A stretch of DNA of 64,000 nt from Bifidobacterium breve (GCA_945877865.1 CAMDVX010000001.1:18728-82727), one strand, 5' to 3'; shown: positions 49,665 through 58,008, numbered from the stretch's first letter. Numbers and translations: made by a program. The notes: generated by a model not told the origin, from the letters alone.

Positions 49665-50096
49665 ATGGGCGTAATCGCAGTTGGCGTTGATGGTTCGGAT
49701 CGCTCGGTTCCCGCTCTAAACTGGGCTGCGCAGGAGGCCGCTGTGCACGGGCACGTGCTGCGTGTCGTGACGGCTTGGTCGATTCCTGTCACCGCCCTCA
49801 GCCCGGGCGGGCTGCCGGCTCCGTATCCGGCGGACGAGCTGATGACCGACGCGCGCGCGGCGCAGGACGCCGTCGTTGCGAAGGCGACGATTCCCGAGGG
49901 CGTCACGCTCGAGCACGTGATCATGGAGGGTGGGCCGGGTGCTGCGCTGATGGAGGCGGCGAAGTCGGTCGAGCTGCTCGTGATCGGCAGCCGTGGCCAT
50001 GGCGGCTTCGCTGGCCTTCTGCTCGGCTCCGTCGGCCAGCAGCTGACGGGCCATGCGGCCTGCCCCGTGGTCGTCGTGCCGACTGCGAAGCACTAG
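49665..50096 (+). CDS. universal stress protein (UspA family)
   Basis: Trimmed to MGVIAVGVDGS, preceded by GAAGGAGG (49652-49659). C-terminal LLVIGSRGHGGFAGLLLGSV...GHAACPVVVV motif. Confidence 0.88.
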   Translation: MGVIAVGVDGSDRSVPALNWAAQEAAVHGHVLRVVTAWSIPVTALSPGGLPAPYPADELMTDARAAQDAVVAKATIPEGVTLEHVIMEGGPGAALMEAAKSVELLVIGSRGHGGFAGLLLGSVGQQLTGHAACPVVVVPTAKH

Positions 50097-50173
50097 CGCC
50101 CGCCAAGGCAGCGCTGACGGCTCGACCCTCAGCTGCTCGCCGTCGCTGAGCCCGACGCTGAGCGCCAGCGAAT

Positions 50174-50207
50174 CGTGGGCTGTGGTTGCGTAAGCACCCA
50201 CAGCCCA
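50174..50207 (+). terminator. hairpin downstream of usp (11-bp perfect stem, no U-tract)
   Basis: gtgggctgtgg-N12-ccacagcccac, 78 nt after the usp stop. Confidence 0.35.
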
Positions 50208-50273
50208 CGAGCCGCTCGGCCGCGCAGCACGGCCTGATCGACGGCGTGCAATCGCTGTGGTGCATTTAGACCT

Positions 50274-50331
50274 AGCGCCGTAGGCCGACGTAGCTCAGCT
50301 GGTCGAGCACTGCACTCGTGATGAAGGGGCC
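50274..50331 (+). repeat. 5' half-copy of tRNA-Thr(CGU), including 10 nt of upstream flank
   Basis: agcgccgtaG-gccgacgtagctcagctggtcgagcactgcactcgtgatgaaggggcc aligns to 52630-52687. By eye, 43/48 positions are identical within the tRNA body and 9/10 in the flank. It ends after the variable region and has no T-arm. Confidence 0.8.
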
Positions 50332-50362
50332 TGACCCTTCTGGACACTCGCCTTCCTGCTAC

Positions 50363-52450
50363 CTAGCGCCTCGTGCCTGCTGAACGTAGCAGCGCGGCAT
50401 GCGCAGTTCGGATCGCTGTGGCCTTCGCCCTGGCTCGCAGCTTCGCGGTCGCGATCGAACCTGAGCGGGCAGTTGCCACGGCCGTCGTGGTCGAGGCGAC
50501 CTCGGCGACGCTGACGACAGTCGGCTCGCCGGTGCCGGTTGCGCAGAAGCCAAAGGCCGCGACGCTCGTGCGTGGGGCGACGACGGCCGCCCAGCTCGGA
50601 GCGATCACCGTTACGACGTTGCCGCTACGGGTCAGGGTGCCGCTCCAACTATCGCTGATCTTGACGCTGCTCGGCAGCGTGAAGACCAGCTTCCAGCTGG
50701 TCGACGACCGCGTTCCCGCGTTCGCGATCGTGAAGCTCCGGCAGAAGCCGGCAGCCCAGGTCGAGTCCTTCGCCACGGTGGCCGTGAGAGCCACCGTTCC
50801 GGGTGCCGGTGCGGGTGCGGGTGCCGGAGTCGGCGTTGGCGTCGGTGTCGGCGTTGGGTATGGGGTTGGGGTTGGCGTCGTTCCGACCGGGTGGGTCGTC
50901 ACCACAACCGTGTGCAATTGTCCCGCGCTGGAGCCCGACACGCAAAGACCCGTGTCGGAGTAGCTTCCTCCTGCGAGGGCCTTCGCCCAGCTGGGTGTGA
51001 CTACCGAGTAGTCAGCACCGGTACGGGTGAAGGTACCGCCCCACGTGCTCGCCACCGTGCCGCCGGTCGGAAGCGAGAAGGCGATCCCGTCGATGATCAG
51101 ATCGTTCGAGGTCGCATTGCCGATCACGATCTTGCCGCACCAGCCGCCCGTCCACTGCGAGTCAATCACGACCCGGGTGCTGATTGCGCCCGGGGTTGGC
51201 GTCGGCGTCGGAGCCGGTGCCGGTGTCGGGGTTGGCGTCGGTGTTGGCGTTGGAATGGGTGGCGGAGCCGTGCCGCCATCGGCCGGTCGACGCATCAGGC
51301 GCGCTAGCAGCGCCAGTTTGTCGGCGTGCACGGTGCGCCAGTCGTCTTGGAGGACGCCACCGGTATCTCCAGAGTTGGGGTTCCAGGCCCAGAAGGTCCA
51401 GCTGATGCCCTGCTGCTCAAGATAGGCAGTGAACTGGTTGATCCAGCGGCCCTCGACGGTGTCGCTGCCGACGTTCTTGGCGCCGAACTCGCCGATCAGA
51501 AGCGGGGCGATGCCTGCCTCCTTGATGTAGCCGAAGCCCTTCTGCCAACGGTCGGCCAAGATCGCCGCCATGTTTGGGTCGGAGAACCAGGGTTGGGCGA
51601 AGACGCCGGGGCCGTATTCGTGGGGCGAGTAGACGACGCGGTTAGCAATCGAAAGACGGACGGGGTTGTTGCGTACTCCTTCGAGGTTGCCGCCCCACCA
51701 GTGGCGGTCGAGCTGTCCGCCGGCGACGGGTCCTTCGATGCCCTCGACGAGGATCAGCCAGTTTGGTGCGCTGGCGAGTACCGCGTTGCCGCCGCGTTCG
51801 GCGGCGCGGCGCCAGTCGTTGGCCGCGCCGGTGCCCCAGGTGGCTTCGCCGTGGGGCTCGTTTTTGAGGTCGGCGCCGATCACGTTTGGCGTGTTGGCAT
51901 AGCGTGCTGCGAGCTTCGTCCAGGCTGCGACCCAGTTGTCTTCGGTGTAGCCGCCAAGGCCGTACCAGAGGGGGTGCATAAACGAATCGTCAGTGGTCGA
52001 GTGGTTGTCGAGGATGATCATTAGGCCTTGCCGTCCGGCCTCCGCGATGATGATGTCCATCACCTGTTGTGGTGTCTTGCCTTGCAGGGCGGCGTTGCGC
52101 CCGTTGCCGTAGTCGATGCCACTCGTTGTGGTCGAGTCGAGCATTTGGAGCGAGAAGGGCATGCGGATCGTGTTGAATCCCTGCGCTTTGATCTGGGCGA
52201 GCATGTCTATGTAGTCGCGGGTCCAGAGTCCGTGGGGTGCGTGGTTGGCAGTTTCGAAGCCGAACCAGTTGACGCCCTGGAGGACGACTTCTTTGCCGGC
52301 CGCATCAACGATCGTGCCGCCCTGTGTTTTGAGAGGCAGCTGTGGTGCGGCTTGCGCGGCGGTCGCTTGGATGAGAAGAAAGGCCAGCACGGCGCTGATC
52401 ATCAGCAGGGTTACGTGCTGGCGTAAATCTGGTCGGGTGATTGTGTGCAT
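50363..52450 (-). CDS. secreted GH5 endoglucanase with two CBM2 modules
   Basis: GH5 motifs GVNWFGFE, DLKNEPHG (acid/base Glu) and LIGEFG (nucleophile Glu). Two Pro/Thr linkers. Two CBM2-like modules (WTGGWCGKIVIGN...; WAAGFCRSFTIAN...). The start is moved to the ATG at 52450 because AAGGAG lies 8 nt upstream; the track start is 52474. Confidence 0.9.
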   Translation of the reverse strand: MHTITRPDLRQHVTLLMISAVLAFLLIQATAAQAAPQLPLKTQGGTIVDAAGKEVVLQGVNWFGFETANHAPHGLWTRDYIDMLAQIKAQGFNTIRMPFSLQMLDSTTTSGIDYGNGRNAALQGKTPQQVMDIIIAEAGRQGLMIILDNHSTTDDSFMHPLWYGLGGYTEDNWVAAWTKLAARYANTPNVIGADLKNEPHGEATWGTGAANDWRRAAERGGNAVLASAPNWLILVEGIEGPVAGGQLDRHWWGGNLEGVRNNPVRLSIANRVVYSPHEYGPGVFAQPWFSDPNMAAILADRWQKGFGYIKEAGIAPLLIGEFGAKNVGSDTVEGRWINQFTAYLEQQGISWTFWAWNPNSGDTGGVLQDDWRTVHADKLALLARLMRRPADGGTAPPPIPTPTPTPTPTPAPAPTPTPTPGAISTRVVIDSQWTGGWCGKIVIGNATSNDLIIDGIAFSLPTGGTVASTWGGTFTRTGADYSVVTPSWAKALAGGSYSDTGLCVSGSSAGQLHTVVVTTHPVGTTPTPTPYPTPTPTPTPTPAPAPAPAPGTVALTATVAKDSTWAAGFCRSFTIANAGTRSSTSWKLVFTLPSSVKISDSWSGTLTRSGNVVTVIAPSWAAVVAPRTSVAAFGFCATGTGEPTVVSVAEVASTTTAVATARSGSIATAKLRARAKATAIRTAHAALLRSAGTRR

Positions 52451-52523
52451 CGTTGTGCTCCTTTCGTCGCTCATGTCTGCGACGAGTCGTCTAGAGAGGC
52501 AGACGGGTGAGGACTCATTCTCT

Positions 52524-52537
52524 GACGCAGTTGCGTC
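52524..52537. promoter_or_regulatory. 14-bp palindrome upstream of the cellulase gene (candidate operator)
   Basis: gacgca-gt-tgcgtc lies ~75 nt upstream of the cellulase ATG at 52450. It does not match the TGGGAGCGCTCCCA CebR/CelR box that I recall. Confidence 0.25.
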
Positions 52538-52639
52538 GGAAAAGGCGGGTCGTCGTACGCGGGCTTACACCTTCTGCTCGCAACGAGTGGTGTGGCCGAC
52601 GCGCCAACCTGCGTCGTGCAACTAAACTCAGCGCCGTAC

Positions 52640-52712
52640 GCCGACGTAGCTCAGTTGGTAGAGCACTTCACTCGTAATGAAGGGGTCCGCGGTTCGAATC
52701 CGCGCGTCGGCT
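52640..52712 (+). tRNA. tRNA-Thr (anticodon CGU)
   Basis: A 73-nt cloverleaf folded by hand. Acceptor gccgacg/cgtcggc; D-arm gctc-agttggta-gagc; anticodon arm cttca-ctCGTaa-tgaag; variable region gggtc; T-arm cgcgg-ttcgaat-ccgcg; discriminator t. No encoded CCA. Confidence 0.93.
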
Positions 52713-52992
52713 CTGCGCGGTGGCGTCGAGCGAAAACCACGCAGGTCGGGAGGGGCTTGGGGAATGGCACCTTGCCACGAGGCGGGGGCGTCGGCCTCGC
52801 TCCTTGCTGAAAGCGGGAAGGCGGCCCTTGGCGGCCCTGCGCGGGCTTCGCGAGGGGCAACTTCACAGCGAGCGAACGCGGCGCATCCACGTTGCGCAAA
52901 CGTTCGGCCGTGGCGTCAGGGGCGTTCTTCCTGCCAACCGCAACCTCCCTCCCAGCACCAGAGCCGGGTGCGCATCGCGCGGCTGCCGTGGC

Positions 52993-53418
52993 TCAGGAGG
53001 CACTGCGGCGGAGCGTCGCCGTGGCGCTCTGGCCACCGCCCTGCAGCCGCCAGGCGTAGCCGAGGCGGCCGTCTGCACGCGGGGTGAAGATCGCCGTGCC
53101 ACGCGACAGCGTGCAGCCTGCCGAGGTGCTGTTGGTGATGTGCTCGATGAAGCGGTAGGCGGCCGCGCCTCTGCCGACGAAGGTGAGTGGCCCGTCGCAA
53201 TTGATGCCCCCTGCGAGGACGATGCGCGAGCCATTCCACTGGCCCGTGAGGTCGACCGTTACCGTGATCTTCGGCTTCGCACCGTTGAGGACGCCGATCC
53301 ACCTGCCGGCGAGGCTGTGTAGCGGGGTGGTGGCGGCCGAGGCGGCGGGAGTGAAGGCTGCGATCGTGGTGGTGATCGCGATCGCGATAGTGATAGTGAG
53401 CAGGCGGCGGCGCTTCAT
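52993..53418 (-). CDS. small secreted hypothetical protein
   Basis: Trimmed to MKRRRLLTITIAIAITTTIAAFTPAASAA (signal peptide). The ~115-aa mature part is beta-rich with two Cys. No family recognised. Confidence 0.5.
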   Translation of the reverse strand: MKRRRLLTITIAIAITTTIAAFTPAASAATTPLHSLAGRWIGVLNGAKPKITVTVDLTGQWNGSRIVLAGGINCDGPLTFVGRGAAAYRFIEHITNSTSAGCTLSRGTAIFTPRADGRLGYAWRLQGGGQSATATLRRSAS

Positions 53419-53614
53419 GGCGCGGATTGTACCGGGGGCTTCCATGTCTTCGCCAGCGGTCGATCACCTGATCGGACGGCTCGGTGCGCCCAAAGGCACC
53501 GCCGAAGCTTCGGCACCTGCAGCAGCGGTAAACCGCTCCCACGTAGATTCTCAAGGACCCGTCGGCTAGATGCGTATGCTCGTTTCTGAGCCAAACGCAA
53601 GCGTGGCATCGTGC

Positions 53615-53658
53615 CTCGTAACGAAGGGGTCCGCGCTTCGAATCCGCGCGTCGGCTCT
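53615..53658 (+). repeat. 3' half-copy of tRNA-Thr(CGU), anticodon loop to 3' end
   Basis: ctcgtaacgaaggggtccgcgcttcgaatccgcgcgtcggctct aligns to 52671-52714 with 42/44 identities by eye. It is in the same orientation as the intact tRNA. Confidence 0.8.
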
Positions 53659-53772
53659 CACGCTCTCGTCGAGCCCGTACCTCTCTCGCTTCGAACGAGA
53701 ACGCTTAGCAATTTCCCCAAACCAGCCACGTTGGCGATGGTGCTGCGTAAAACCAGCGTGTACCGTGGCTGC

Positions 53773-54504
53773 ATGCATAGATGCAAATGGCTCCCGCTGC
53801 CCGTCGTCGTCGTCCTCATGCTCGTGCTTGCGACCGGCTCGCTGGCTGCGACGACCACGGTCTACGTGGGCGGACCCGACGCTGATGGTCCGGCGGGACA
53901 CACGTTTGCCGAGGCGCACGTCACCATCTACGTCGGAGACTCGATCTCGTTCACGATGGCGGCGAACGCGGGAGCAGCTCCACACCTGGTGCAGTTCAAC
54001 CCTGCGAACCCGGCCGTGATCGCCAATTGCTGGGGGCCCGGTGGAAACTCCATGGTCGGGCGCGCACCCGCTCTATCGGCCTGTGAGCGGCAGTTTACCG
54101 TCGCTGGCGACTATCCCTACGCGTGCAACTGGCACGACTCGGGCGTCGGTGGAGAGAACATGCATGGCATCATCCACGTCGTGGCCAGAGCGGCTGCAGA
54201 TGCTGCGGCGCCACCAGCGGCGCTCGCCTTCACCGCCGCGGGGCTGGCGACCAATGGCGGCAGGGGAGGCGTGGGGGTTTCGCTGACGGCCTCAGGCGCG
54301 GGCTGGGTGACGGGGACCATCACCTCGAAGGTCAAGCAGAAGCCGAAGGTCCAGAGGATCAAGCGCTTTCGCGTCGCTGCGGGCACGCAGACGGTCAAGA
54401 TCAAGGTGGCGACGGGCGCTCCACCGAAGGGCGCGGCCACGATCAAGCTGATGCTGATGACGGACGATGGGCGGATGGCCAACCTCGCAATCGCCGTCAA
54501 GTAG
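53773..54504 (+). CDS. secreted cupredoxin (blue-copper) domain protein with C-terminal Ig-like extension
   Basis: Signal MHRCKWLPLPVVVVLMLVLATGSLAA. Candidate Cu ligands: APHLVQF (His), YACNWH (Cys, His), NMHG (Met). The start could also be the ATG at 53737. The track's 5' extension is just the translated tRNA fragment. Confidence 0.72.
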   Translation: MHRCKWLPLPVVVVLMLVLATGSLAATTTVYVGGPDADGPAGHTFAEAHVTIYVGDSISFTMAANAGAAPHLVQFNPANPAVIANCWGPGGNSMVGRAPALSACERQFTVAGDYPYACNWHDSGVGGENMHGIIHVVARAAADAAAPPAALAFTAAGLATNGGRGGVGVSLTASGAGWVTGTITSKVKQKPKVQRIKRFRVAAGTQTVKIKVATGAPPKGAATIKLMLMTDDGRMANLAIAVK

Positions 54505-54677: not shown

Positions 54678-56708
54678 CTAGATTCGGCGCCCCGAGCGAT
54701 GGCCTTCGTAGACGGCCTCGAAGGTTCCACGGGGGGCGATTGCGTCGCCGATCATCTCAACGCTGATGCCACGCTCCTTGAGGACGTGGTACAGCCGGTT
54801 CTCGGAGTAGCGGCCGGTGTTGAAGACGATCGCATCGGCTTCGAGGGTGGTGACGCGCTCGGGTGCGTAGACGTTGACGAGCTCGACGGTGCGTCCGTCG
54901 ATGCGGGTGCAGGCGTGGTCGGTAATCGTGGGGATGTTCGCCTTCGTCAGAGCCTCGCGCGTCCACAGGTAGTAGACCTCCGGCATCGTCTCCATCGCGA
55001 TCATCGGCCAGCGCGAGACGATCGTCACGTCGCAGCCCTCGCGGGCCAGCTTGACCGCGGTCATCGGGCCCGTGATGTCCTGCAGGTCGTCGATCACGAC
55101 GACCTTGCCCGCAGCCGTCGCCTTGCCATCGATGACGTCGTACCAGCTCATGCAGTTGCCAGTCTCCCAGCCGGCCACCGGGCTGACGGTCTGCCCGTTC
55201 CAGCCGTCGCGCCGATTGACGCAGCCGGTAGCGACGACGACGTGGTCGGGAGCCTCCGCAGCGAGGACCTCGTCCAGCCGGGCCTCGGTGACGTCGACCC
55301 CTGTGCGGATCTCCGCACCGTTCTTGCTCGCCTGTGCCGCCAGCCACGTCGCGATAAAGCCGAACTCCTCGCGATCTGGCAGGCCCGCCTGCACGCGGAC
55401 GTGCCCGCCGGTCTCCTGCTCGCGCTCGAGCACGGTGACGCCATGGCCACGGGCGGCCGCCACCCGGGCGAACTCAAGCGCCGCTGGGCCACCACCGATG
55501 ACGAGCACCTTCTTGGGGTCTGCGACCGGCGTCAGCGTCTCGCCATTCCACTGGCGCTCGCGCCCCTGCTCGGGGTTGTAGATGCACTGGACCCTGCCGC
55601 CTGCCGTCGCCGTGCGCCAGCAGTAGTTGGCGGCAACGCAGCGGCGGATGTCGTCCTCACGACCCTCCTTGACCTTCGTCACCCACTCCGCATCCGCGAA
55701 GAACTGACGGGCAAGCAGGATCGCATCGGCCTCGCCTGCCGCGAGGATCTCCTCGGCAATCGACGGGTTGGTGATGCGGCCGACGGCCAGCACGGGCTTC
55801 GTTGAGACCTGCTTGGCCGCGCGGGTGTACTCGCGCTCCCAGCCGGGCGGATAGGTCATCGGCGTATGAATGAACGAGTGGTGGACTCCTGCCGACACGC
55901 TGACGTAGTCGATGTCGGCGCTGTCTTGGATCGCCTCGATCACCTCGTTGAGATCCTTGGGCTCGAGGTCGCCATGCCAGAACGACGTGGAGTTGATGCG
56001 ATAGCCAATGAAGAGGTCATCGCCGCCCTGCTCGCGCATCGCCTTGAACGAATCGAGCGAGAACCGCAGGCGGTTCTCCAGCGACCCGCCCCAGCGATCC
56101 GTACGGTGGTTGTAGAGCGGCGACAGGAACTGCCACGGCAGGTAGCCATGCGCGAGGTGGTACTCGATGCCGTCGAGCCCGGCCTCGGCGGCCCGCCGAG
56201 CGGCAGAGCCGAACGAGTCGATGATGTCGGTGATCTCGTGGTCCTCAAGCTCCTTTGGCATCGGCGCGTTCGGCCACTCGCCCGGCGGCACCTGGCTCGG
56301 CGCGACGGTATGCCAGGCCGCGTCGAAGTCATAGGCCGAGTCCTTCTGGATCACGGCCATCGAGCGCATCCCGGGGTGGAGCAGCTGGACGGCAACCTTG
56401 CAGCCGTGGCGGTGGCACGCCTCACGAATCCGCGCCAGACCCTCGATCTGCCGATCGTCCCAGAGCCCGGGAAACAGCAGGTGCGCCAGCAAGGCATCCT
56501 GACGGATCACGTTGCTGCCGATGATGATGAGGCCGCACCCGTTGCGCGCGCGCTCCTCGTAGTAGGCGACGGCCTGATCGGTGAAGGACCCATCGACCGG
56601 GTTCGTCACCCACGTCGGACAGGTGGGAGCGAAGACAACGCGGTTCGAAATCGTCGTTCGGCGCAGCTGCCACTCGGAAAACAGCAGGGGATAATCGCTG
56701 GCGGCCAT
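54678..56708 (-). CDS. NADH:flavin oxidoreductase (OYE TIM-barrel) fused to an FAD/NAD(P)-binding domain, 2,4-dienoyl-CoA reductase-like
   Basis: 676 aa. N-terminal OYE-like barrel (ISNRVVFAPT..., HLAHGYLPWQFLSP..N.RTD.WGGSLENR). Cys cluster region. KKVLVIGGGPAALEFARVAAARGH Rossmann motif. Confidence 0.85.
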   Translation of the reverse strand: MAASDYPLLFSEWQLRRTTISNRVVFAPTCPTWVTNPVDGSFTDQAVAYYEERARNGCGLIIIGSNVIRQDALLAHLLFPGLWDDRQIEGLARIREACHRHGCKVAVQLLHPGMRSMAVIQKDSAYDFDAAWHTVAPSQVPPGEWPNAPMPKELEDHEITDIIDSFGSAARRAAEAGLDGIEYHLAHGYLPWQFLSPLYNHRTDRWGGSLENRLRFSLDSFKAMREQGGDDLFIGYRINSTSFWHGDLEPKDLNEVIEAIQDSADIDYVSVSAGVHHSFIHTPMTYPPGWEREYTRAAKQVSTKPVLAVGRITNPSIAEEILAAGEADAILLARQFFADAEWVTKVKEGREDDIRRCVAANYCWRTATAGGRVQCIYNPEQGRERQWNGETLTPVADPKKVLVIGGGPAALEFARVAAARGHGVTVLEREQETGGHVRVQAGLPDREEFGFIATWLAAQASKNGAEIRTGVDVTEARLDEVLAAEAPDHVVVATGCVNRRDGWNGQTVSPVAGWETGNCMSWYDVIDGKATAAGKVVVIDDLQDITGPMTAVKLAREGCDVTIVSRWPMIAMETMPEVYYLWTREALTKANIPTITDHACTRIDGRTVELVNVYAPERVTTLEADAIVFNTGRYSENRLYHVLKERGISVEMIGDAIAPRGTFEAVYEGHRSGRRI

Positions 56709-56925: not shown

Positions 56926-58008
56926 ATGACCGCCACGACGCCCAGCGGCACCGCCGCCCGCAGCCATCGCATCGCCGCCATTCCGGGAGACGGGATTGGG
57001 GTGGAGGTCATGGCCTCCGCGCGCGAGGTCTTGGACGCACTGGCCCAGGTCGAAGGGTTCTCCATCGACTGGGTCGACTACCCGTGGGGCTGCGACCACT
57101 ACGTCGCAACGGGGCTGATGATGGACGCTGATGGCATCGAGCGGCTCGCCGACTCTGATGCCATTCTGCTCGGCGCCGTCGGCCGGCCCGACGTGCCAGA
57201 TCACGTATCGCTGTGGGGCCTGCTGATTCCGATTCGTCGGCACTTCGACCAGTACGTGTGCCTGCGGCCCGCGCGGCTGCTGGAGGGGATCACCAGCCCG
57301 CTGGCCGAGGGTCGCGGGGCGATCGATCTCGTCATCGTGCGCGAGAACTCGGAGGGGGAGTACAGCGAGGTCGGCGGCCGCTTTCATCAGGGGCAGCCGA
57401 GCGAAATGGCGGTGCAGCAGGCGATCTTCACGCGCCCTGGCGTCGAGCGGATCGCCCGCTACGCCTTCGACCTCGCCCGCACGCGCAGCGGCCGCCTCGC
57501 ATCGGCGACCAAGTCGAACGGCATCGTCCACACGCTCCCCTTCTGGGACGAGGTGGTCGAGGAGGTCGCGGCCGAGTATCCAGACGTCGCGTACGCCAAG
57601 TACCACGTCGATGCGCTCGCAGCCCTGCTCGTGCTGGATCCGGCGCGGTTCGACGTGATCGTCGGCTCGAACCTCTTTGGCGACATCCTGTCGGACATCG
57701 CCGCGGCCCTCGCGGGGAGCATTGGCATCGCGCCGTCTGGCAACATCGACCCGTCGGGGAGGTACCCGTCGATGTTCGAGCCCGTGCACGGGTCGGCGCC
57801 CGACATCGTCGGTCAAGGCATCGCCAATCCGCTTGGCCAGCTCTGGTCGTCGGCAATGATGCTCGAGCACCTTGGCGAGGCCGCCGCTGCTACGCGGCTG
57901 CTCGCTGCCATTGAGCAGGTCGTCGCTGCCGGCACCATTACGCCGGACCTTGGTGGTGCTCACTCGACCGTAGACGTCACCCGCGCGGTCATCGCGACGT
58001 TCGCGTAG
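56926..58008 (+). CDS. tartrate dehydrogenase/decarboxylase-like (isopropylmalate/isocitrate dehydrogenase family)
   Basis: IAAIPGDGIGVEV, DAILLGAVGRPDVPDHVSLWGLLIPIRR.FDQYVCLRP, VRENSEGEYS and NLFGDILSD are family motifs. Confidence 0.82.
   Translation: MTATTPSGTAARSHRIAAIPGDGIGVEVMASAREVLDALAQVEGFSIDWVDYPWGCDHYVATGLMMDADGIERLADSDAILLGAVGRPDVPDHVSLWGLLIPIRRHFDQYVCLRPARLLEGITSPLAEGRGAIDLVIVRENSEGEYSEVGGRFHQGQPSEMAVQQAIFTRPGVERIARYAFDLARTRSGRLASATKSNGIVHTLPFWDEVVEEVAAEYPDVAYAKYHVDALAALLVLDPARFDVIVGSNLFGDILSDIAAALAGSIGIAPSGNIDPSGRYPSMFEPVHGSAPDIVGQGIANPLGQLWSSAMMLEHLGEAAAATRLLAAIEQVVAAGTITPDLGGAHSTVDVTRAVIATFA

Follow-up and report, generated by a model that had tools for sequence, protein, structure and literature searches.

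Half-copies of tRNA-Thr(CGU) around a GH5 cellulase gene that appears to have been imported from a related Gaiellales lineage

In the 64-kb stretch of DNA analysed here in full (GCA_945877865.1, CAMDVX010000001.1:18728-82727; hereafter the window), an intact tRNA-Thr(CGU) gene, copy B, stands between an upstream 5' half-copy, A, and a downstream 3' half-copy, C, and the gene for a secreted GH5 endoglucanase lies between A and B. Sequence comparison supports the import of this cellulase gene from a related lineage, here called Clade I, and we favour, at a probability of roughly 55%, an explanation in two events, i.e., import of a GH5 block of Clade I type that left A behind, and a separate integrase-bearing element that left C. 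Scars of this kind are familiar, and the present one is an uncommon variant, namely a probably integrase-free, tRNA-anchored import with a 5' scar at a hairpin and with the transfer hidden by synteny. A preliminary description of the stretch had proposed acquisition of the enzyme at the tRNA, with half-tRNA scars left by classical tRNA-targeted integration. That mechanism fits C and does not fit A and the GH5 block; the core of the proposal (acquisition at the tRNA, half-tRNA scars) is carried by other evidence, namely synonymous divergence (dS) and trees. The elements concerned are the following, with positions counted from the first letter of the window.

50257-50329, plus strand: fragment A, a promoter flank from -27 to -1 (50257-50283) followed by tRNA positions 1-46 (50284-50329)
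50330-50352, no strand: right-hand half of the Clade I hairpin (TGTCCAGA..TCTGGACA family), where the imported block starts
50363-52450, minus strand: GH5 endoglucanase that carries a signal peptide and a pair of CBM2 domains (Pfam Cellulase PF00150, E=1e-53; two CBM_2 stretches, PF00553)
52451-52639, no strand: GH5-tRNA spacer of 189 nt, with the GH5 5' untranslated region and promoter and the tRNA promoter
52640-52712, plus strand: copy B, tRNA-Thr(CGU) by ARAGORN and Rfam, the only functional copy
52714-53614, no strand: B-C islet of 0.9 kb, with a single gene (52993-53445, minus strand) for a 150-aa small secreted protein (smallsec)
53615-53658, plus strand: fragment C, tRNA positions 32-73 plus 2 nt

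ARAGORN, whose use the preliminary description had recommended, calls one tRNA in the window, tRNA-Thr(cgt) at 52640-52713, which is copy B. It scores 72.6 bits with the Rfam tRNA model and is 100% identical to its orthologs in L001, L009, L014, L015, L016 and L027; across clades, the identity of this tRNA is 97-100%. Formal alignment confirms three co-oriented tRNA-Thr segments. A (50257-50329) aligns ungapped with 52613-52685 at 85% over 73 nt, and C (53615-53658) with 52671-52714 at 95% over 44 nt, with a possible weaker extension of C to ~53674. When the full window is scanned on both strands by Smith-Waterman alignment, A scores 91 and C 85 against 30 for the best unrelated tile, and no further tRNA fragment was detected in the window (e.g., before the dehydrogenase gene IDH). 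The extent first given for C (tRNA positions 32-73 plus 2 nt) agrees with this alignment; A was rightly seen as a 5' half-copy, with bounds that have to be moved, since it starts at 50257 and not 50274, and its tRNA part ends at position 46 and not 48. Similarity of A to B upstream of -27, and of C to B left of position 32, is not significant against shuffled sequences.

A carries the conserved -10 region, and its tRNA part differs from B by substitutions at positions 16, 21, 29 and 37 and by the loss of T47 (4 substitutions and 1 deletion in 46 nt); C has 2-3 substitutions in 42 nt, and T39C together with G53C disrupts the structure. Neither fragment alone is called as a tRNA. The chimera A(1-31)+C(32-73) is called as tRNA-Thr(cgt) with stem defects, much as had been predicted for the two halves joined into a second, decayed tRNA-Thr. 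A is a decayed pseudogene, and B is the only copy working today. The overlap of A and C amounts to 15-17 nt and is probably not a recombination core, as its two end points, 46 and 32, are unrelated. That A and C are chance similarities or assembly artefacts has next to no probability and is already refuted: their scores stand against a background maximum of 30, and every junction recurs in independent assemblies made from other samples with different assemblers (L081, which matches at 99.985%; L083, 100% across usp-A-GH5; L091; L180, 99.1% across A-GH5-B-smallsec-C), so that misassembly is ruled out.

To find relatives, 185,579 species genomes were scanned with PSP1, which places the window in freshwater Gaiellales/Thermoleophilia, the best PSP1 identity being 83% aa. 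Throughout the order, tRNA-Thr(CGU) lies downstream of tmk-holB-PSP1-usp, at a highly variable distance. Housekeeping trees distinguish Clade I (L001, L002, L003, L005, L006, L007, L106), Clade II (L008-L010, L014-L016), L004 alone, and the window on a long branch of its own. About ten relatives carry GH5 beside this tRNA in usp-hairpin-GH5-tRNA synteny (L001, L002, L005-L008, L014 and L016 among them), and in Clade I usp has a 31-nt hairpin (TGTCCAGA..TCTGGACA) within a few bases of it, beyond which lie GH5, encoded on the other strand, then a spacer of 189 nt, and then the tRNA. A metagenome scan with GH5 returned mostly unrelated GH5 contexts, the informative loci being L100, L106, L120 and L156 only.

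This synteny bears in two ways on the preliminary description, which had looked to relatives for usp and tRNA without the cellulase, and had named an arrangement shared by all of them, with the same cargo, as the mark of an old, vertically inherited structure. The distant relatives L009 and L015 do have usp and then the tRNA without GH5, and the ~10 relatives do share the cargo at the tRNA; neither A nor C occurs in those ~10, however, and no A-like fragment was found in any relative examined. The shared GH5-tRNA synteny belongs to the donor clade. GH5 is decaying in parts of Clade I, being frameshifted in L002, reduced to a 138-aa fragment in L007, and devoid of CBM2 domains in L001 and L106. 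The content 3' of the tRNA varies by group: a GS-like/M20 peptidase block in L001, L002, L106, L156 and L007; directly after the tRNA, IDH in L005 and L016 and a lyase gene in L100; and, in the window, smallsec, C, a gene provisionally termed cupredoxin-like, and an OYE-type gene.

The case for import is built on a dS contrast and on tree incongruence, not on composition (dS by Nei-Gojobori; neighbour-joining trees with bootstrap). Between the window and Clade I, dS is 1.2-1.8 for tmk, 1.04-1.15 for holB, 1.05-1.24 for PSP1 and 1.0-1.17 for usp, and the genes downstream give similarly 1.04-1.16 (IDH), 1.08-1.29 (ALS), 0.84 (LLM) and 0.99 (OYE); for GH5, the catalytic part has 0.39-0.51 and the CBM part 0.41. 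Among the Clade I genomes themselves, GH5 dS (0.51-0.58) matches housekeeping dS (0.55-0.74), and thus GH5 is vertically inherited there and not merely a slow gene. Nucleotide identity to relatives is 70-80% for the flanking genes of the window, 84-91% for GH5, and 85% (L002) for the non-coding GH5-tRNA spacer. In the trees of PSP1 and holB, the window falls outside Clade I on a long branch (support 100% and 88%, respectively); in the GH5 tree, it falls inside Clade I (100%) on a short branch, beside L106 and L156. Because housekeeping genes and GH5 occur on one contig in L005 and in L106, binning error is excluded.

The acquisition of the cellulase at the tRNA, in a block bracketed by A and B, is thus borne out by the dS contrast and the tree conflict. 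The deviation in codon usage for which the preliminary description had suggested looking is not there: third-position G+C (GC3) and synonymous codon use are native-like in GH5, smallsec, the cupredoxin-like gene and the OYE gene, and the low G+C of the GH5 catalytic part reflects its amino-acid composition. Such a lack of signal is expected of a donor of similar composition. An initial reading of GH5 as ancestral and of A as a purely local duplication, which had been drawn from the shared synteny and the 189-nt spacer, was overturned by dS and the trees. The OYE gene is native and lies outside the import.

The imported block extends over 2.4 kb: it starts in the middle of the hairpin (50330), takes in GH5 and the entire spacer, and stops within the tRNA. 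At its left end, 50326-50365 matches L005/L006 at 92.5% identity over the hairpin half and the 3' flank of GH5, and in those two genomes the left half of the hairpin and then usp follow; the window holds only the right half, the full Clade I hairpin being absent from it. At its right end, the spacer (52451-52639) aligns over its full length with L002 (85%), L001 (80%), L007 (77%) and L106 (73%), and the other intergenic regions near the feature show no alignment to relatives beyond a 36-nt stretch. Past either edge of the block, homology is no longer detectable. The left edge coincides with the right junction of A. There, the tRNA reads ...ATGAAGGGG up to the joint and CCTGACCCTTCTGGACA after it, as against ...AGATCGGG and then CCTGACCCCTTCTGGACA in the donor, so that GAAGGGG/CCTGACC in the window faces GATCGGG/CCTGACC in the donor hairpin, with 3-7 nt of microhomology (GGG/GAAGGGG). 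A therefore ends at tRNA position 46, in the variable region and eight nt past the anticodon loop. The preliminary view of this junction as an anticodon-loop att junction does not survive its position and its microhomology to a mid-hairpin sequence that is contiguous with usp in the donor clade; nor does anything show that mobility genes, held to have since been lost, ever belonged to the GH5 block.

Read from the sequence, A most likely stems from the recipient's own tRNA gene, as its native 5' end after displacement. This reading draws on three observations: (i) A/B similarity stops at -27, and it is near this point that alignment between orthologous tRNA promoters from different clades is lost as well; (ii) the 160 nt between usp and A occur in no relative, and this lineage-specific sequence is mostly a 117-nt palindrome; and (iii) L009 and L015 show a usp-tRNA layout without GH5.

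The first tRNA position present in fragment C is 32, at the 5' edge of the anticodon loop, and this boundary recurs elsewhere: the independent 3' fragments of L016, L053 and L055 start from position 31/32, and that of provirus L182 from 32. A search of viral contigs gave no match to the exact 42-nt tRNA 3' half and five loci with a degenerate pattern. The IMG/VR provirus UViG_3300047467_000008 carries a complete tRNA-Thr(CGU) with a tyrosine integrase (phrog_1, E=5.6e-39) immediately after it, as well as phage-like genes and a 3' fragment from position 32. The anticodon loop of tRNA-Thr(CGU) is a used att site in this group, and C is best explained, by analogy, as an integrase-type attR scar, in keeping with the earlier view of B plus C as an attL/attR-like pair. 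The search that had been advised for integrases using this loop succeeded in the provirus and found none near the window. Among called genes within ~10 kb either side, no integrase Pfam was found, in agreement with the original remark that the ~0.9-kb segment has no integrase, and lax regex and tblastn searches found none in the block, the window neighbourhood or 175 related loci. With the tRNA-Thr integrase of L184 as query, tblastn returned nothing in the window or related loci, and the islets of L016, L053, L055 and the window encode no relative of it. GH5 and the 150-aa secreted protein are the only open reading frames in the two islets. A counterpart of the B-C islet at this position is missing from all 80 genome loci. 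Homologs of smallsec have 61-74% identity overall; in the three contigs that were read for context, they neighbour a MoxR-DUF58-TgpA operon.

In the two-event explanation, the native order in the recipient would have been usp, a long hairpin, the promoter and tRNA-Thr(CGU), and the downstream genes. The 2.4-kb block would have been donated by Clade I (L001, L002, L005, L106 and others), a related lineage with vertical inheritance of usp-hairpin-GH5-tRNA, and would have consisted of half the donor hairpin, GH5-CBM2-CBM2, the 189-nt spacer, and the donor tRNA promoter and tRNA start. On its right side, it would have been joined through tRNA sequence identical in donor and recipient; on its left side, illegitimate microhomology-mediated end joining would have linked recipient tRNA positions 40-46 (GAAGGGG) to the GGG(G) run of the donor hairpin loop. 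The recipient promoter and tRNA positions 1-46 would thereby have been stranded upstream as A, and an intact, partly donor-derived tRNA would have resulted as B. Either of two routes would yield the same structure, namely the use of a donor fragment to repair a break at position 46, or integration of a circularised fragment via 5' tRNA homology. C would be the displaced 3' end left by a tyrosine-integrase element with its crossover in the anticodon loop; of that element, 0.9 kb would remain, with smallsec as its only gene. The data show the three copies with their boundaries, the import of GH5 and how far the imported block reaches, the lack of an integrase, and the recurrence of position 32; we infer the joining mechanism, the nativeness of A as opposed to its being a copy of B, and the order of the events.

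Several observations weigh against this explanation. The motif AGCGCC at -9 to -4 is common to A and B, every relative having CCGGCC or CGGGCC, and such sharing looks as though A had been copied from B, or as though A and B had later undergone gene conversion; with a native A and a donor-derived promoter of B, it would not be expected. In the A of strain L086, 6 of the 9 variable sites are B-like and one is C-like, so the ancestral A flank may have been of B type. The closest GH5 stands at dS 0.39, the donor lineage itself being absent from the sampled genomes, and the Clade I members closest in the catalytic domain (L106, L002) are without CBM2 domains. Values of dS near 1 approach Nei-Gojobori saturation, which makes the contrast a qualitative one. 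As for closer relatives or empty-site strains, the genome scan gave none above 83% aa in PSP1, and exact-protein look-ups gave contigs of the same species with the same layout. Lastly, with no integrase or element gene in the B-C islet, the integrase origin of C is argued from position and analogy.

The L086 variation in itself is concentrated in A: between L086 (992-1058) and window A (50256-50322) there are 9 differences in 67 positions, compared with 6 in 991 in the flank. This mosaic suggests ectopic gene conversion or local hypermutation, and we attribute both the patchwork and the shared AGCGCC to the exchange of patches among A, B and C by gene conversion; a tandem duplication after the import, followed by deletion, would leave the same traces.

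The two events would reduce to one if a linear donor fragment of ~3.28 kb (50330-53614), made up of half the hairpin, GH5, a complete donor tRNA, the islet and the donor's own 3' tRNA scar, had inserted into the recipient tRNA and brought B with it. Its left end would have joined by microhomology at position 46 and its right end by recombination of the donor 3' fragment with the 3' half of the recipient tRNA, leaving A and C as the halves of a destroyed native tRNA (C partly donor-derived) and B as its replacement. A, B and C would then stem from one event without duplication of recipient DNA, in line with the similar decay of A (4 substitutions and 1 deletion in 46 nt) and C (2-3 substitutions in 42 nt) and with the folding of the A+C chimera as tRNA-Thr, and a functional analog exists in tRNA-dependent lysogeny, where a same-isotype replacement tRNA is supplied (PMC10865867). 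The right 0.9 kb (52714-53614), however, has no homology in the sampled Clade I, whose members have the GS-like/M20 block or IDH there; smallsec homologs sit at an unrelated locus in the relatives whose contigs were read; and an unsampled donor arrangement would be needed along with a 42-nt homology anchor. The single 3.28-kb insert of the preliminary description thus persists in modified form, with its left joint at 46 and not in the anticodon loop and with no islet homology in Clade I, as an unlikely though serious alternative.

Less probable again is a reading in which A is no import scar, and in which GH5 arrived earlier by replacement or is old at this site, a tandem duplication ran from the middle of the hairpin to tRNA position 46, and the first GH5 copy was then deleted. 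The derived AGCGCC shared by A and B would follow directly from such a duplication, the joint of position 46 with the middle of the hairpin is exactly what it would produce, and the A flank of L086 differs from B at 4 of 27 positions and from L002 and L001, the two orthologs compared position by position, at 7 of 27. Against this, three events (import, duplication, deletion) would be needed; only by chance would the deletion end at -27, where promoter conservation between clades ends, and only by chance would the left edge of the import be the duplication joint; and gene conversion between A and B, to which the strain polymorphism lends some support, could account for AGCGCC. An integrase could also have mobilised the GH5 block as an island with a 5' fragment, with an attP from -27 to +46, a crossover in the anticodon loop, and an integrase since lost or acting in trans. 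Islands of this class exist (159 of the 3919 in Islander have a 5' tDNA, i.e., tRNA gene, fragment upstream of the tDNA; PMC4383910), the orientation and side are correct for it, and the anticodon loop of this tRNA serves as an att site in the group. The homology of A nevertheless reaches position 46, eight nt past the loop, and ends in a hairpin contiguous with usp in the donor clade; no integrase was found in the block, the window neighbourhood or the 175 related loci; and the whole "island" is ordinary Clade I chromosome sequence, so that we regard this origin as very improbable.

Beyond the two-event explanation, we put forward, tentatively and as something rather doubtful, that the invariant tRNA-Thr(CGU) is a universal homology anchor in streamlined freshwater Gaiellales, by which single-gene cassettes, mostly for secreted proteins and enzymes, cross genus-level distances integrase-free. 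One end of a cassette may recombine in the tRNA and the other may join by microhomology, often at hairpins, with inserts on both sides of the tRNA; half-tRNA scars may be the footprint, A here and possibly some of the integrase-less 3' fragments of L016, L053 and L055. A case that fits this idea is found in Clade II, where the GH5 genes of L008 and L014 differ by a dS of 0.16 as against ~0.6 for holB, PSP1 and usp, a sign that this cellulase was exchanged at this locus a second time and more recently.

The same tRNA is associated with further rearrangements in the relatives. L016 (14254-17018) has two complete tRNA-Thr(CGU) genes 2.7 kb apart, each with a promoter, with a 3' fragment of a different allele between them; the cargo comprises a secreted pentapeptide-repeat protein and a P450, and no integrase. 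In L100 (reverse strand), a 1.6-kb insert with an aromatic amino-acid ammonia-lyase-like gene lies directly after the tRNA and before IDH; this small, integrase-less insert has the tRNA 3' end at one edge and a 7-nt copy of that end (CGGCTCT) at the other. In L120 (1004-3190), of Clade I, the OYE gene lies between GH5 and a gene for a secreted protein, X, i.e., on the opposite side of the tRNA from that in the window, and X occurs without OYE in L005 (4841-6112), L100 and L156; a break point in the spacer at about window positions 52570-52582 is common to L120, L005, L100 and L156. The seeming lack of a tRNA between GH5 and OYE in L120 was resolved as an insertion of OYE between GH5 and X, the tRNA probably lying past the contig end. 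In L029 (15297-15832), another Gaiellales MAG, an insert of ~460 nt interrupts tRNA-Thr(CGU) at position 26/27, and the ARAGORN call has 24.9 bits with Rfam. The insert matches no Rfam intron family and could be an unrecognised intron, a small mobile element, or the mark of a dead gene; given the split at 26/27 and the lack of an Rfam intron match, it was set aside as either a second A-type scar or a group I intron and is not comparable to A.

The remaining features of the window near the three copies are as follows.

49665-50096, plus strand: usp, universal stress protein (Pfam Usp, E=1.7e-26), last gene of the native tmk-holB-PSP1-usp block
50134-50250, no strand: long imperfect palindrome of 117 nt with 57-nt arms, matching its own reverse complement at 77% over 120 nt (inverted repeats I9, I21)
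53737-54504, plus strand: 255-aa secreted protein of a near-orphan family
54678-56708, minus strand: OYE-type NADH:flavin oxidoreductase (Pfam), 93% aa identity to L120 at dS 0.99
56926-58008, plus strand: isocitrate/isopropylmalate-type dehydrogenase (IDH; Pfam Iso_dh), which directly follows the tRNA in L005 and L016

The full order is tmk, holB, PSP1, usp, A, GH5-CBM2-CBM2 (minus), B, the 150-aa secreted protein (minus), C, the 255-aa secreted protein, the OYE-type gene (minus), the IDH-type gene, a luciferase-like monooxygenase (LLM; minus), and a thiamine pyrophosphate (TPP) enzyme. Pfam assigns GH5 and two CBM2 domains, Usp, PSP1, holB and tmk. The secreted GH5-CBM2-CBM2 endoglucanase of the preliminary description is upheld by the PF00150 match and the two PF00553 stretches listed above and by a hydrophobic N-terminus visible in the translation; in its Pro/Thr-rich linkers, the window (50802-50860) and L180 differ by three 6-nt indels, which point to slippage in GGTGTCGGCGTTGG-type repeats. 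The label "cupredoxin" attached to the 255-aa gene fared otherwise. No Pfam family matches the protein even at E<=5 and no PDB relative has E<0.03; AlphaFold2 does not model its N-terminal domain (pLDDT ~30) and gives a beta-sandwich for its C-terminal half (pLDDT ~75), and a C..H..M-like motif is seen by eye only. Its homologs form 2 clusters only among 5.8 billion proteins, and the gene for the only distant one (54%) lies directly after IDH in L178 (611-1333) and L179.

The 117-nt palindrome, for which no homolog was found in any relative, lies upstream of the native tRNA promoter and probably corresponds to the native usp terminator region. Near its centre (50179-50204), five metagenome contigs of independent origin (L082, L084, L088, L089, L180) begin or stop, and strain L089 has a 12-nt deletion in it (50140-50151). 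The Clade I hairpin occurs in L005 (2412-2584), L006 (11304-11405), L002 (11304-11335), L003 (5044-5074) and L007 (6722-6752), in both orientations, and in 71-nt tandem units, three in L005 and two in L006; it may be a small repeat family or a bidirectional terminator.

Taken together, the locus illustrates that conserved synteny can mask horizontal transfer: the same tRNA-linked position of the cellulase is seen in ~10 species, and import into this genome is revealed only by the dS contrast and the half-tRNA scar. Both islets would escape island finders that demand an integrase. Should the joining mechanism be the one proposed, tRNA genes would aid gene flow twice, first as targets of integrases and second as short segments in which diverged genomes match perfectly, and this second role would be relevant to the trade in polysaccharide-degrading enzymes among uncultured freshwater Actinomycetota with few mobile elements.

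Among known systems, the tDNA islands collected in Islander are the nearest frame for B and C; of 3919 islands, 2083 are anticodon-centred, 3760 have 3' fragments, and 159 have a 5' fragment (PMC4383910). As in such islands, an intact tRNA is accompanied by co-oriented fragments on the correct sides (A upstream, C downstream, all on the plus strand); C starts at the anticodon loop, the crossover site of class "A"; the locus is a hot spot with different content in every related species; and foreignness is evident, for GH5 from dS and tree conflict and for the B-C islet from its lack of a counterpart in 80 loci. Unlike them, where an integrase is required, neither islet here has one, the islets are tiny (0.9 and 2.4 kb) with one gene each, and cargo composition is native-like. 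With respect to crossover sublocations, the C boundary at 32 fits, whereas the A boundary at 46, fused to a hairpin, does not. B/C is thus an ordinary tDNA-island scar except that it is without an integrase. The A/B arrangement shares with the 5'-fragment islands a fragment upstream of B in the same orientation and an acquired gene between the two; it differs in having no integrase, in a joint at 46 made in the donor hairpin by microhomology and not at an att core, and in that the "island" is a piece of a relative's chromosome.

In the tRNA-dependent lysogeny of actinobacteriophages, integration destroys the host tRNA and the element brings a same-isotype replacement (Guerrero-Bustamante and Hatfull 2024, PMC10865867). 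The likeness holds for the single-event alternative only, where the native tRNA would be split and the insert would supply a same-isotype tRNA, in a host that also belongs to Actinomycetota. In contrast, no phage genes, integrase or short common core (~10 bp) are present here; the 15-17 nt overlap of A and C ends at a microhomology joint, and the replacement would be the donor chromosome's own gene.

Homology-facilitated illegitimate recombination, described in natural transformation of Acinetobacter and Streptococcus, combines a one-sided homologous anchor with a microhomology join at the other end. Two differences separate the present case from it, an anchor of only 27-74 nt and recipient sequence that is kept, as A, rather than deleted. 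In other respects, the A/B structure looks like this process, which would by analogy suggest its mechanism: one end lies in a conserved tRNA (97-100% across clades) and the other at 3-7 nt of GC-rich microhomology, the foreign segment comes from a diverged relative, and the joint adjoins the anchor.

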